The translations under genes and the position numbers were made by a program. The notes beneath the pieces are model-generated. The model searched no databases and was not told where the DNA came from. It was given only the letters and a program-made list of their open reading frames with translations. Below, one piece after another: positions 8,221 to 46,038 of a stretch of 64,000 nucleotides of DNA (positions are counted from its first letter, which is position 1; each line of letters begins with the position of its first letter). The stretch is from positions 438,199 to 502,198 of the forward strand of contig CAVVST010000005.1 of the NCBI GenBank assembly GCA_963750995.1, written 5' to 3'. This DNA is from an uncultured Acidobacteriota bacterium (GTDB lineage Bacteria; Acidobacteriota; Vicinamibacteria; Vicinamibacterales; UBA2999).

Positions 8221-8649
8221 TCAGTTCGCGCCGGGGGCGTTGAGCTCTTCGCCGACGGCCGCTGCCGAGATGACGCTTCCGTCCGCGCGAACGATCTTTC
8301 CGCCGCCCAGGTTGGCGCCGGAGAAGCCCACCGGGGCGCCGTTCTTGGCGGCCACGAGCGTGACCGTGAGCACTTCACCGACTTTGGGCATATTCTTCAG
8401 GCCGCCGGGCGTGCGCAGGTTCCGCGGAGCGCCGGTCTCGATGGCCCAATTGACGACCTTGCCGTCTTCGGCCTTCACGTCCAGGAACAGCATGCTGTGC
8501 GGGTTCTGCAGCACGAACTCTGTCACCGTTCCCTTGATAGTGACCGGATTCAGCACGTCGTAGGCCGACACGCCGTGGTGTGCCAGCATCCTGCCGCCGG
8601 ACGCGAGAACGATCGCGAATACCGCCGCGACGATACACCTGGTTTTCAT
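8221..8649 (-). CDS. DUF6152-like secreted protein
   Basis: Signal ending MLA, then HHGVSAYD; GTVTEF, NPHS, WAIE. Confidence 0.8.
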   Translation of the reverse strand: MKTRCIVAAVFAIVLASGGRMLAHHGVSAYDVLNPVTIKGTVTEFVLQNPHSMLFLDVKAEDGKVVNWAIETGAPRNLRTPGGLKNMPKVGEVLTVTLVAAKNGAPVGFSGANLGGGKIVRADGSVISAAAVGEELNAPGAN

Positions 8650-8669
8650 CGGATCCTCACTGTAATGCG

Positions 8670-9512
8670 TTACTTGCCGGCGGCCGGTGGCTCGATGGCC
8701 CGGCGCCTGATGCGCTCTTCGAACAACCTCTCGTTGTCAGGATTGCAGAAGTTCGGGACTCGTACCCGGTCGGGGCCGCGCTTGTACGTGACGGTGGTGA
8801 CCTTATAGGGCTGCGTCCAGATCTTCGGGTCCTCGATGAGAGTGTCCAACAGCAGCGTGTCGTAGTCCACCCGCCGATAGCGCTCGGTTATCTTTATCTC
8901 ATCGCTGTACGGCAGACCTTCTTCGCTCAGCCACGCCAGACCATCATTGAAGCCTGTCGATTCCACGACGAAGGTGAAATCGTCCTCCCAACGGCCCACT
9001 GATTCCCCCATCCAGCCCGTGTCGTATCTCAACTCGGGAGGATCGACGTCGAGCTTACGTCCGTCGGTCGCGATCTGCCGCCACGTCGAGCCGAGAAAGT
9101 GCACCATCTTGCCGGGAAGCTGGGCGAACTCGCCGCCGTTCCAGACGAGCCTTGGCATTCCGCTCGGCATGCAGCGCAGGTTCGGGTCGTTGCCCATCGG
9201 CTGCTGACGGATGCCGTAGCCCGGCCTGTTCGCCTCGAACCTCTTCTGGCCCTCCGGCGTCATCGGAGGCATGTCGACGAAGCCGGGACCGCGGGCCACG
9301 CCGCTCAGGCTGTGAATCGAGGAGAGTGACGGATCGCCGGGCTGGCGGTTCCAGACGCCGGTGATGTCACGCTTCGGAGCGGGTTTTGCCGTCGCCGGTT
9401 GTGTGGTCCCCGGGCGAGCGGCGGTGCCCTGCTCGCCACCCTGGGCGAGCACAGTGGGAGCAACGACGATGGTGCCGATCAGAACGGTCGCTTTCAGGAA
9501 ACGGATCCGCAT
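8670..9512 (-). CDS. Secreted two-Cys family protein (DUF6152 partner)
   Basis: Start MRIRFLK with GAAGGAG RBS; RDITGVW, DPNLRCMPSGMPR, GRWEDD, EDPKIWTQPY, NFCNP. Confidence 0.8.
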   Translation of the reverse strand: MRIRFLKATVLIGTIVVAPTVLAQGGEQGTAARPGTTQPATAKPAPKRDITGVWNRQPGDPSLSSIHSLSGVARGPGFVDMPPMTPEGQKRFEANRPGYGIRQQPMGNDPNLRCMPSGMPRLVWNGGEFAQLPGKMVHFLGSTWRQIATDGRKLDVDPPELRYDTGWMGESVGRWEDDFTFVVESTGFNDGLAWLSEEGLPYSDEIKITERYRRVDYDTLLLDTLIEDPKIWTQPYKVTTVTYKRGPDRVRVPNFCNPDNERLFEERIRRRAIEPPAAGK

Positions 9513-9522
9513 GTGAGCTCCT

Positions 9523-10303
9523 TCAATTCCCCGCACAACGGACGCCAACGTCAGTGTACCGGTATTCGGGCACGTGGAAATCGCGGGACGAGGCTCGCAC
9601 GGTTCGCGGACCGGTGAACCAGGAACCGCCGCGCTCCGCGCGCTCCCTCCCCTGAGGCGTGCCGTTCGGATCGACCGCCTTGTCCGCCGTGTACGGAGCA
9701 TACCAGTCGCTCATCCACACCCAGACGTTTCCCAGCATGTCGTACAGGCCGGTACTTGTTCGGCTGCTTCTGCCGGACCTCCTTCGCCTGCAGTCCACCG
9801 CTGTTCGCGAAATACCAGGCGATGTCGTTGATCTCTCCGTAGCGTGGGGTCGTGGTGCCGCCGCGTGCCGCGTACTCGTATTCCGCCTCGGTCGGGAGCC
9901 GCATTTCCACGGCCTTGCAGTACGCGTCGGCTTCAGCCCACCTGATGAACGTCACCGGCAGCTGGTCGCCCTTGTGGATGCTCGGATTGGCCTTCATCAC
10001 CTTCTGGTAGGCCGCCTGTGTCACCGGCGTCTCGCCAATCCAGAAGTCCCTCGAGATCGTGACGGAGTGCGCGGGCTGTTCGTCCGGTTTGCACTCCGCG
10101 TCACCCGGCGAACAGCCCATCTGAAACGTGCCCGCCGGAATGAGCACGTACGTGAGGCCATCGTGGGGGTTGACCTTGGTCCTGGCCTGTGCGGCGGGCG
10201 CGGATCCGTCCGGCCACCCGACCGTGATGACGAGGGCGAGCACCGGCAGCAGTCGCCAGCCAGGGCATTTACTGCGGAGCAAGGTGCAGTTCTGAATTGT
10301 CAC
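9523..10303 (-). CDS. Formylglycine-generating enzyme (SUMF1/PvdO) fold protein, secreted; frameshifted
   Basis: IPAGTFQMG, DEQPAHSV, RLPTEAEYEYAARGG, GLYDMLGNVW, RGGSW, GVRCA. The catalytic Cys pair of true FGE is absent after RGGS. Confidence 0.85.
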
Positions 10304-44545: not shown

Positions 44546-44620
44546 CCCATCCTCCCCCGCTGATGGCACCCCTCGGACACGGGTAGCGACGGTTGCCGGC
44601 TACTGCGTGCCTGCAGTCGC

Positions 44621-45040
44621 CTAAGGGGTTCCCAGACCCAGGCCCGAATCACCCAACTCGATCTTCTTGCCGTCAGGCAGGGTCATCGCGTTGACCAAGA
44701 TGCCCTTCGTGGCTCCCCCCGACACCTTTGGGGGGTATCCATACAGCGTCAACTTGGTGCCCGGGGCCAACGTCTCTTTGGTAATACCGTACCTGGCCAA
44801 GCCGGCGACGCCTTGCCCCAAGATGGCTACGTACTTCGTCGTCACCGCGCCCTCCGTGACGTCCAAGAACATGGACGGATGGGGGTTGACGAGCGCCACC
44901 CTCGTGATCACGCCGGTTACCGACACCTTCTTCTGGGCCTCCCAGAAATTCGCAACCGAGTGATGGGCCTGCACAGAGGCCGTCCGCATGACGAGCACAG
45001 CGGCAAGCACGACAATCAACATACTTGCGCCTAGTCTCAC
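44621..45040 (-). CDS. DUF6152-like secreted protein
   Basis: GTG start, signal ending VQA, then HHSVANFWE; NPHP. Confidence 0.78.
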   Translation of the reverse strand: MRLGASMLIVVLAAVLVMRTASVQAHHSVANFWEAQKKVSVTGVITRVALVNPHPSMFLDVTEGAVTTKYVAILGQGVAGLARYGITKETLAPGTKLTLYGYPPKVSGGATKGILVNAMTLPDGKKIELGDSGLGLGTP

Positions 45041-45077
45041 AGTATTCCTCCGGTTTCTAGAGCTTCTTACTGGCGAC

Positions 45078-46038
45078 CTACTTTGGGTCGTTGTCTTCGT
45101 CGTACGGCGAGGGCGTGGCAACTTTTATCTGCCACCAGGCGCTCTCGGGGTCGCACGTAAAGTTTGACAGCGCAGGCTGCGGCGCCTTGACGTAGTGCCA
45201 TGTCCAAGTCCACGGTTGCTTCAGAAAGATCTTGTCCTCTAGCGTGAACGTGATGTCGATCTTGTTGGCAGAGATCTTCTTCCAGCGCTCGGTGACCTTC
45301 TTCGCTGCGGAACTGGCTATATGGAGATGATCGTCGATCCCATCCGGATCGAAGGGGAAATTCGTGGTTTCGATGACCAACTCTTCGCCTTCCATCCACC
45401 CGATCGAGTGTCCCATCGAGAAGAGGAAGTGGGGCTCCGGATGTTTTCGCCCGTCCATGTAAATGACCCGAGTGAGGCCCTCCGAGAACGAATCGGTCGT
45501 CATTTGGATCTCCATTCGATGGGGACCCAGCATGCGCACCGCTCCAATCTCATGATCCATGACGGTCGGCAGGGAATTGGGCAGACACAGATGCATTCCG
45601 GACATCATTTCGTCACGGAACGCCATCCAGGCGTGTCCTCGCTTGTTCAGGAAATCCTTGATCCCGAGCTTCGCGCCGCCCTTGGCTTCCCAGGGGTGTG
45701 AACAGCGTGTCATGGGAGCACCGGACGGATCCTTGATCGCCCCGCAGGCTGCAGCTGAATCGAATCCAAAACCGGACACCTCTTTGTAGCCGTCAATCGC
45801 CCAGTAGCCGCTAAAATCCCCTGGCTCGGTCGGCTTCACGAACTCCGCAGCCGGTGGGGCCGCCCCCCGCCCTCCAGGACCCTGGCCGCGCGCCCCCTGG
45901 CCCTGACCCTGCGCCTGCTGGCCACCTTGGGCCGCGAGGGTAGGTCGAGCCCATGAGGGTCAAGACCGCGAGAACCACGAGTCCCCTCGCCACGTTCCAG
46001 TTTGGTTCAGTGTGTCGCGTGTGCTTGACGCCCATCAT
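45078..46038 (-). CDS. Secreted two-Cys family protein, DDHLH subtype; frameshifted in the Gly-rich N-terminus
   Basis: DFSGYW, HLCLPNSLP, GWMEGEELVIET, FDPDGIDDHLHIASS, EDKIFLKQPW, FTCDP. Confidence 0.78.

Follow-up and report, generated by a model that had tools for sequence, protein, structure and literature searches.

DUF6152 genes recur beside a family of predicted secreted barrel proteins in a Vicinamibacterales genome and in other lineages

We analysed a stretch of 64,000 nucleotides (the window) from the genome of an uncultured Acidobacteriota bacterium of the order Vicinamibacterales, focusing on its four genes of the family DUF6152 (Pfam PF19649) and on the gene that stands beside each of them. 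Here D denotes a DUF6152 gene or protein and P a gene or protein of the partner family. In pair 1, D1 (8221..8649, (-), 142 amino acids (aa), Pfam E 1.7e-21) has a signal peptide followed by His-His (A/HH, the slash marking the predicted cleavage site), then NPH and WAIE; its partner P1 (8670..9701, (-)) is an open reading frame (ORF) reaching to 9701 with a likely start at Met 9509 (279 aa), and the mature part holds two Cys and the motifs GNDPNLRCMPSGMPR and WLSEEGLPYSDE. Pair 2 consists of D2 (20623..21054, (+), 143 aa, E 2e-18, WSAE) and P2 (21058..21954, (+)), which is frameshifted and carries GNDPMLMCDPIGMPR and WLDTEGHPHSDE. In pair 3, D3 (28324..28875, (-), E 5.5e-19, likely start Met 28728) reads SPH and WRIT, without the Glu, next to P3 (27481..28296, (-)), a protein with four Cys of what we call the DDH type (FDPDGMDDHLH). 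Pair 4 joins D4 (44621..45121, (-), E 1e-14, start uncertain within 45022-45121), which has NPH and YVAI and so neither the Trp nor the Glu, to P4 (45078..46038, (-), main ORF 45078-45839), likewise of DDH type (FDPDGIDDHLH) with four Cys.

The four D ORFs score 54.8-76.5 bits against a 27-bit cut-off, and a DUF6152 scan of the whole assembly places exactly these four within the window span. Each is co-oriented with its neighbouring P at a gap of about 3-55 nt; P comes first (P>D) in pairs 1 and 4, and D first (D>P) in pairs 2 and 3. All four P are homologous to one another, with P2, P3 and P4 showing 42, 26 and 24% identity to P1. A preliminary description of the window had stated that all four DUF6152 genes adjoin a co-oriented two-Cys partner, in either order; the ORF listing and Pfam bear this out. 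The motifs that it had read are present as well: the four D motifs WAIE, WSAE, WRIT and YVAI, the four motifs of P1 and P2 given above, and, in P3 and P4, the DDHLH-containing stretch together with an extra N-terminal Cys pair.

Pairing extends well beyond the window. The assembly (5.5 Mb, 6 contigs) holds 97 DUF6152 matches, 94 of them over the cut-off, with 0 in 14 control genomes. Profiles for D and P built from the window alignments and iterated over all six-frame ORFs of the genome matched 98 D ORFs and 155 P ORFs, fragments of frameshifted genes included. A P lay within 300 bp of 77 of the 98 D hits, co-oriented in 71 of those 77, and within 3 kb of 89. By chance, random 400-bp segments fall near a P in 4.2% of cases genome-wide, and in 13.6% when drawn from the same 100-kb bins and weighted by D count. 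Among 151 sampled genomes of the same phylum, 14 have DUF6152, with 1 to at least 30 matches per genome, and a co-oriented adjacent P was found at 24 of 26 loci from the 13 others, including all six genomes with a single D. The pairing is thus a property of the two families and not of the window.

The arrangement varies. When same-strand genes with gaps below 400 bp were clustered, this genome yielded 34 clusters of the form DP, nine PD, five DPP, four PPD and four PDP, besides some longer strings, as well as 44 with P only (P, PP, PPP or PPPP) and 20 with D only (D or DD). A D stood within 400 bp of 72 of the 124 full-length P and within 3 kb of 91, and 16 had none within 10 kb. The pairing had been described as obligate, a term that fails for the P family because D nearly always has a P, yet P often stands without D, as the P-only and D-only clusters and the 16 isolated full-length P attest. 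Nor do "at least two subtypes" describe the diversity found: P falls into many clades, and there are triads (P-P-D, D-P-P and P-D-P) and fusions besides. The P genes without D are concentrated in particular clades of a FastTree tree.

We compared D-D with P-P distances over 57 clean co-oriented pairs and found them correlated (Mantel r 0.52; 2000 permutations gave a mean of 0.00, a standard deviation of 0.048 and a maximum of 0.17). The earlier statement that the pairs co-vary is thus upheld, with D and P forming a recurrent, co-diversifying unit. Neighbouring genes that are duplicated jointly would, however, produce such a correlation even if their products did not bind. The agreement is loose at close range: for only 28 of the 57 pairs does the closest D paralogue have a partner that ranks among the three nearest P, and some close D relatives sit beside distant P. 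Taken with the Mantel correlation, this indicates that pairs tend to duplicate as units, with some swapping of partners.

In some lineages the two genes are joined. Among the 120 listed matches to P1, all of them unnamed or "hypothetical", nine homologues of 371-406 aa also carry PF19649. All six fused proteins that we read run from a signal peptide through A/HH, the D domain and a linker to the P domain. Across loci from gammaproteobacterial and other metagenome-assembled genomes (MAGs), all 26 ORFs with both domains are D-P and 0 are P-D, two of the 26 (L068 and L110) being the same locus. Fusions thus occur in at least two phyla, always with D first, whereas separate genes take the order P>D in 18 of the 57 clean pairs. 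The D-first rule does not amount to a statistical test because the fusions may descend from few events; it fits a requirement for a free D N-terminus, and natural D-P fusions make a physical association of the two proteins plausible. In three gammaproteobacterial genomes (G151, G152 and G153) the D matches number at least 150, 101 and 14, and many of these lie in 350-400-aa ORFs that are D-P fusions. The expansion of D and P therefore also occurs outside Acidobacteriota, where the MAG records name Rariloculaceae and Woeseiaceae. Together, the records of D/P loci name Vicinamibacterales, Terriglobia, Rariloculaceae and Woeseiaceae MAGs, lineages that are common in soils and sediments. Tandem P-P proteins of 454-541 aa with two stretches matching the P profile (P0123, P0125, P0129, P0130, P0139 and P0144) mirror the tandems of P genes. 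A word-based search for longer relatives of D1 gave one uninformative match.

Two of the four window partners are frameshifted as assembled. In P2 the shift lies near 21750-21760, and a family-like C-terminus (TIDDPKTYTKPW...EYFC), including the second Cys, continues in another frame and ends near 21922. In P4 it lies near 45930-45950 in the signal-peptide region, the signal-peptide part being in another frame from Met 46038, which is the start in intact P4 orthologues at 94% identity (L119 and L120). The public contigs compared with the window are mostly 90-95% alike and come from relatives, and none among those listed bridges the P2 frameshift. Each of the two shifts may be an assembly error or a real lesion. 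Genes split between frames are found elsewhere in the window too, namely the TonB-type outer-membrane protein (OMP) gene at 31122-34426, OMP fragments at 12222-15010, a metallo-beta-lactamase-like ORF at 26525-27484 and two extra P genes at 3376-5954; all of these, with P2 and P4, could reflect assembly indel errors or a widespread pseudogenisation of paralogues.

Such splits, in a GC-rich genome with many spurious ORFs, might suggest that the D and P ORFs are not real genes or that they stand together only by chance within a repeat-rich region. This is already refuted, and its probability is negligible: the Pfam scores lie far over the cut-off, GC content at third codon positions is 0.73-0.85 in all eight D and P ORFs of the four pairs, orthologous pairs are conserved in other phyla, and a search with the P profile finds 12,490 cluster representatives at E <= 1e-10 (20,330 at E <= 1e-3).

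The D family is most constant at its N-terminus. In the alignment, A/HH is found in 94 of 94 sequences and the NPH histidine in 94 of 94, compared with 78 of 90 for the Trp and 70 of 90 for the Glu of WxxE. All D have a hydrophobic leader that runs up to HH, with Ala, Ser or Gly at position -1 and, for the most part, Ala, Val or Leu at -3; the leader is probably cleaved there, so that His would be residue 1 of mature D. A structure model of D1 (predicted local distance difference test (pLDDT) 85.4) runs from a bent strand 1 with a conserved Gly through the NPH turn to strand 2, strand 3 with WxxE, a short helix and two further strands. Its best Foldseek matches are oligonucleotide/oligosaccharide-binding (OB) fold domains of LysRS, ExoVII, PriB, SSB and IF1 (E 3.3e-3, probability 1.00). 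A VIA structure search, independent of Foldseek, returned 168 chains with Z of at least 5; all 50 rows listed are OB-folds, the best having Z 8.6 and a root-mean-square deviation (rmsd) of 2.4 over 83 residues (3stb_C). An OB-fold is a closed barrel of five strands in which a helix separates strands 3 and 4; the order of strands and helix in the model fits, and D is predicted to have this fold. With OB-fold proteins such as SSB, PriB and the N-domains of aminoacyl-tRNA synthetases it shares the predicted fold only, whereas D appears to be secreted and carries the N-terminal HH and NPH; a PDB sequence search with D gave chance-level rows only (E >= 0.09). CusF is a periplasmic OB-like protein; neither it nor other periplasmic OB-like metallochaperones are among the 50 VIA rows listed for D, a result that leaves room for such a likeness.

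The conserved residues His24, His25, His51 and Glu71 of D form a putative metal site, their grouping in space being hypothetical. A 2025 study (PMC12537917) reports metal binding for four classes of secreted bacterial proteins that begin with His once the signal peptide has been removed. Because the His at the first mature position is fully conserved, fusions place D first and that study offers a precedent, we consider it somewhat better than an even chance that D carries a metal on its N-terminal His, together with the His-His, the NPH histidine and often the Glu. The "signal strapping" metalloproteins of that study (DUF4198, DUF6702 and anglerases) resemble D in having His directly after the signal peptide and further conserved potential ligands, and DUF4198, one of the four classes, reportedly neighbours TonB receptors, as D likewise stands in loci of TonB-type OMPs. 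They differ in having other folds, beta-sandwiches among them, whereas D is a predicted OB-fold. Conservation of the first His is given there as 79% and 65%, against 94 of 94 for His-His in D. Unlike them, D comes with a barrel protein, either as a neighbour or in a fusion, and reaches about 100 copies, and its metal site is putative. The main text of PMC12537917 does not mention DUF6152, and a search of about 8.4 million full texts gave no mention of DUF6152, PF19649, DUF6644, PF20349 or IPR046150.

The P family is large and unlabelled. No Pfam or NCBIfam family lies above cut-off in the four window P, and 80 P members searched against Pfam gave one DUF3471 match, one WWE match and nothing shared. 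A PDB sequence search with P gave nothing at E <= 1, and an ESM Atlas search with P1 returned "hypothetical protein" clusters from Acidobacteriota only. In the model of P1 (pLDDT 81.7), strand 1 bears G-x-W and is followed by an insertion of about 70 residues, by eight more strands and by a helix at the C-terminus. The insertion, between strands 1 and 2, contains short helices and carries PPMTPWG and NDPxxxCxPxGxPR, the most conserved motif of the family; C113 and C255 are nearly invariant, and G51 and W53 nearly invariant or invariant. Foldseek gave weak matches to fatty-acid-binding proteins (FABPs) and cellular retinol-binding proteins (CRBPs) at E 0.05. VIA gave Z 8.3 for SAHS (5xn9; rmsd 2.9 over 113 residues), 8.0 for nanoKAZ and 7.4 for CRBP IV, with FABPs, nitrobindins, Rv0813, lipocalins and avidins in lower rows down to Z 5.0. 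Values near 8 are within a range common for this search, so the assignment holds at the level of the fold only. P is thus predicted to be an FABP/lipocalin-like (calycin) barrel of some 240 aa in which a Cys pair is conserved. Its model resembles FABP, lipocalin and nitrobindin barrels in the G-x-W of strand 1, in an insertion at the position of the FABP helical lid and in the C-terminal helix. Unlike known calycins, it has a roughly 70-residue insertion with NDPxxxCxPxGxPR, a conserved Cys pair and a D partner, and no sequence match to them.

We modelled the complex of pair 1 only, using the mature parts with alignments of our own in three runs and three controls. The ipSAE values were 0.31, 0.36 and 0.38 (median 0.36), against 0.00 in all three controls, with at least 66% contact agreement and a partner pLDDT of at least 72. 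Of 157 solved complexes, 116 attain the mark used for this score, as do 2 of 215 mismatched pairs, and values that reach it at 0.60 or below comprise only 18 of the 157 solved complexes and both passing mismatches. The prediction is accordingly a weak pass and lends weak support. Together with the fusions and the tight operons, it makes a physical association of cognate D and P likely. A less probable account, which we nevertheless take seriously, is that the two proteins serve one periplasmic pathway but form no stable complex, for instance through hand-over of a metal or ligand or through a shared outer-membrane transporter, in which case adjacency, co-duplication and occasional fusion would reflect co-expression. 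The weak complex score, the frequent P-only and D-only loci, the swapping of partners among close D paralogues and the triads with two different P are in its favour. It is harder to reconcile with recurrent fusions in at least two phyla in a fixed order, with the very short intergenic gaps and with a pair kept at 24 of 26 loci across the phylum. We conclude that D and P most likely work as one unit, probably as a complex.

The preliminary description had gone further and proposed that the two proteins form an obligate heterodimer of at least two subtypes, in which the Asp and His residues of DDHLH in P may replace the Glu lost from D at a shared metal site. One direction of the underlying association stands. 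Wherever a DDH-type P has a D, that D lacks the Glu: both in the window, all 15 at loci of P3 orthologues and all seven at loci of P4 orthologues. Conversely, 0 of 51 Glu-bearing paired D have a DDH partner. The P3 orthologues were found at 20 loci in Vicinamibacterales, Acidobacteriota, Terriglobia and Gammaproteobacteria MAGs; D lies directly upstream in 15 of them, always reading W-R-I-[T/L], and the other five have no D within 2.5 kb. P4 orthologues at nine metagenome loci have a downstream D in seven, always reading Y-[VI]-A-I, and none in the flank examined in two.

The other direction does not hold. Intact D without the Glu account for 20 hits, two of them overlapping, and thus for 19 loci, 15 of which have a co-oriented P. 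In 13 of these 15 the partner is ordinary, as in the A[TS]FQ clade of D with its C.P.G.PGM[FW] P proteins, and only in two (pairs 3 and 4) is it of DDH type. DDH therefore goes with a Glu-less D or with no D, and absence of the Glu does not imply DDH. The genome has four P proteins with D[DE]H.H, and two of these (EDHIH and EDHTH) stand beside an OMP and an amidohydrolase gene with no D. These two genes (2959-3918(-) and 7963-8826(-) of locus L031, G000:C5:231000-242000) lie, together with genes for a TonB-type OMP and an Amidohydro_2-like protein, in a block that is duplicated.

Several further points bear on whether P could supply the missing ligand. The second His of the motif varies among the 20 P3 orthologue loci (DDHLH 17, DDHLR 2, DDHLL 1), and one P4 orthologue reads DDQIH. 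DDH-type P form one clade in the midpoint-rooted tree, next to FDPRGF-type P, so their association with Glu-less D represents about one evolutionary event. The FDPRGF-type P, their nearest non-DDH relatives, pair with D that keep the Glu (WRFE and WRVE), which favours the proposed replacement. In the corresponding loop, however, ordinary P frequently combine a His with an acidic residue (G.PHS[DE]). His-His and NPH are invariant when the Glu is lost, so the Glu is not an indispensable part of the conserved site. With DDH- or EDH-type P that lack a D (two in the genome, 5 of 20 and 2 of 9 orthologue loci), and with many P clades and architectures, the proposed obligate heterodimer with a shared site completed by DDHLH is very improbable. 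An equally good reading of the DDH clade is that P gained a His/Asp cluster of its own while D decayed and was sometimes lost.

The window as a whole is a run of uptake and catabolic genes. Four TonB-type OMP genes have CarboxypepD_reg N-termini, one of them split, in addition to the OMP fragments mentioned above; other genes encode amidohydrolases, two MR/MLE enolases, an amidase, a thiamine pyrophosphate enzyme, a truncated FGE-sulfatase and an insertion sequence (IS) transposase. Directly after pair 2 lies a TonB-type OMP gene with a CarboxypepD_reg N-terminus (21958..24921, (+)), and upstream of pair 3, on the same strand (-), are an amidase gene (28796-31114) and the split TonB-type OMP gene. 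This setting recurs in the genome, where CarboxypepD_reg has 121 matches: 60 of 98 D hits and 98 of 155 P hits have such an OMP N-terminus within 5 kb, compared with 20% of positions taken at random. We set aside a toxin-immunity or defence reading, as both proteins have signal peptides and stand in uptake and catabolic loci.

DUF6644 (PF20349), a small membrane protein whose first helix has a conserved E-x-x-H, is a further recurrent neighbour. Of its 14 genome matches, 13 have a D or P gene within 2.5 kb. Three are in the window: in the C-terminal half of a membrane protein convergent on the pair-2 operon (24978..26300, (-)), in that of another at the end of the pair-4 gene string (41747..42781, (-)), and, as a weaker second copy, in the ORF 42676-43194 (-). 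The two long window proteins share an N-terminal half with an H-x-L-L-N-H-x-P-T motif. At three loci of other genomes (L095, L096 and L098) DUF6644 flanks P-D, and a D without P in this genome (C2:1198039-1198611) is followed by two DUF6644 genes. In number, D (about 95) and P (about 155) far exceed the 14 matches of this candidate inner-membrane partner. Bug/TctC periplasmic solute receptors show a comparable expansion, with divergent secreted paralogues that number from tens to hundreds in a genome. D and P differ from them in their unrelated folds, in forming a two-protein unit and in their link to TonB-type OMPs.

In two single-D genomes, an operon encodes a cytochrome c-pyrroloquinoline quinone (PQQ) beta-propeller dehydrogenase followed by P (about 305 aa), P (about 377 aa) and D (about 153 aa), and in a third an Amidohydro_3 gene takes the place of the dehydrogenase. 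The four-gene strings lie at L095 4174-8171+, L096 4222-8645 and L097 3243-8449, and their two P are different paralogues. These strings suggest that the P-P-D triad may be the ancestral form.

Such operons raise the possibility of a periplasmic redox unit, in which D, with copper or another redox metal on a histidine brace, would oxidise a substrate held in the P barrel, its electron donors being c-type cytochromes, PQQ dehydrogenases or membrane proteins of the DUF6644 family. A histidine brace is defined as an N-terminal His plus a further His (PMC10952591), and both are invariant in D; a His as mature residue 1 is found in D at the level of sequence prediction, in all 94 aligned sequences, and the NPH histidine is the candidate for the second His of a T-shaped N3 coordination of copper. 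The PQQ operons of the two single-D genomes, the proximity of 13 of the 14 DUF6644 matches to D or P and a cytochrome c-like gene (7046-8200) abutting pair 1 also fit this view. Histidine-brace copper proteins (LPMO, CopC, YcnI and PmoB) share with D the N-terminal His and second His, an acidic residue and Trp usually nearby in sequence, and an extracytoplasmic location. The likeness is confined to the sequence level, as their fold is different, and Pfam and PDB sequence searches found no sequence relation of D to them; we know of no histidine-brace protein with the fold of D. Moreover, 14 DUF6644 matches face some 95 D genes, and hydrolases or dehydratases, not redox proteins, stand beside most pairs. 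We therefore regard a redox unit as unlikely.

Further members of the P superfamily stand in the window without a D beside them. Two genes, each frame-split, lie at 3376..5954 (+) and correspond to the hits C5_441574, C5_442382, C5_443009 and C5_443112 of our own hidden Markov model. A 448-aa gene without a Pfam hit or an adjacent D (48231..49577, (-)) lies upstream of an amidohydrolase gene in the pair-4 gene string. At the window end, a gene cut at 63702..64000 (-) is divergent from a fifth D just outside the window (C5_501900 and C5_502826). Around pair 1, the gene at 7046-8200 (+), which converges on D1, encodes a 384-aa secreted protein with two CxxCH haem motifs and a CytoC_RC-like N-terminus. 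On the other side of the pair, at 9551-11205 (-), a DDE transposase gene (10327-11205) abuts the FGE-sulfatase-like gene, which matches its Pfam profile only over positions 5-142 of 255 and overlaps the long form of the P1 ORF. This looks like an IS insertion beside pair 1.

We propose that each of the four pairs is a copy of a two-gene periplasmic module, widespread but so far undescribed, that combines a metal site in D with a ligand pocket in P and acts on substrates of TonB loci, and we put the probability of this reading at roughly 0.5. Both proteins would be periplasmic or secreted. D would be a small Sec-secreted OB-fold protein whose cleavage leaves His-His at the N-terminus, with an invariant NPH histidine and usually W-x-x-E on the next strand; P would be a Sec-secreted calycin-type barrel from a very large family. 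The two genes would be co-transcribed; they tend to duplicate together and in some lineages are fused, always with D first. D would supply a metal site built on its N-terminal His, and P a variable ligand pocket, its conserved insertion standing where FABPs have the portal or helical lid. The module would handle substrates in the periplasm, at loci that provide TonB-type OMPs and hydrolases or dehydratases.

A number of observations weigh against this reading. With 52 of the 124 full-length P lacking a D within 400 bp, and with the P-only clusters, many P genes are without D, so P is able to function alone; about eight intact D have no P within 3 kb. The frameshifts in two of the four window partners, the loose nearest-neighbour agreement, the partner swapping and the weak complex score point the same way, and co-diversification and fusion of neighbours can come from shared function without a stable complex. 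Judging by OB topology, the N-terminus and the NPH/WxxE end of D may lie at opposite ends of the barrel. About 100 D copies per genome would also be unusual for a metal-handling system.

D-P pairing, the fusions and the scale of the expansion appear to be undescribed, and no characterised relative or known system of this composition emerged from the comparisons above. Both predicted folds are ordinary, and the D-P mechanism is hypothetical. A bolder version, which we hold to be rather improbable, is that DUF6152 is a new class of periplasmic metalloprotein, with a brace-like N-terminal-His centre on an OB-fold as the constant half, catalytic or metal-handling, and a variable FABP-like P that selects the substrate. 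If that were true, soil Vicinamibacterales and sediment Gammaproteobacteria would have multiplied one machine 100-250 times for varied TonB-imported compounds.

Neither family has a characterised member, and together D and P account for about 250 ORF hits in a 5.5-Mb genome. A testable pairing with natural fusions thus offers access to a large set of periplasmic genes that lack annotation, and the D-P module may show how TonB-type uptake loci outside Bacteroidota handle their cargo.

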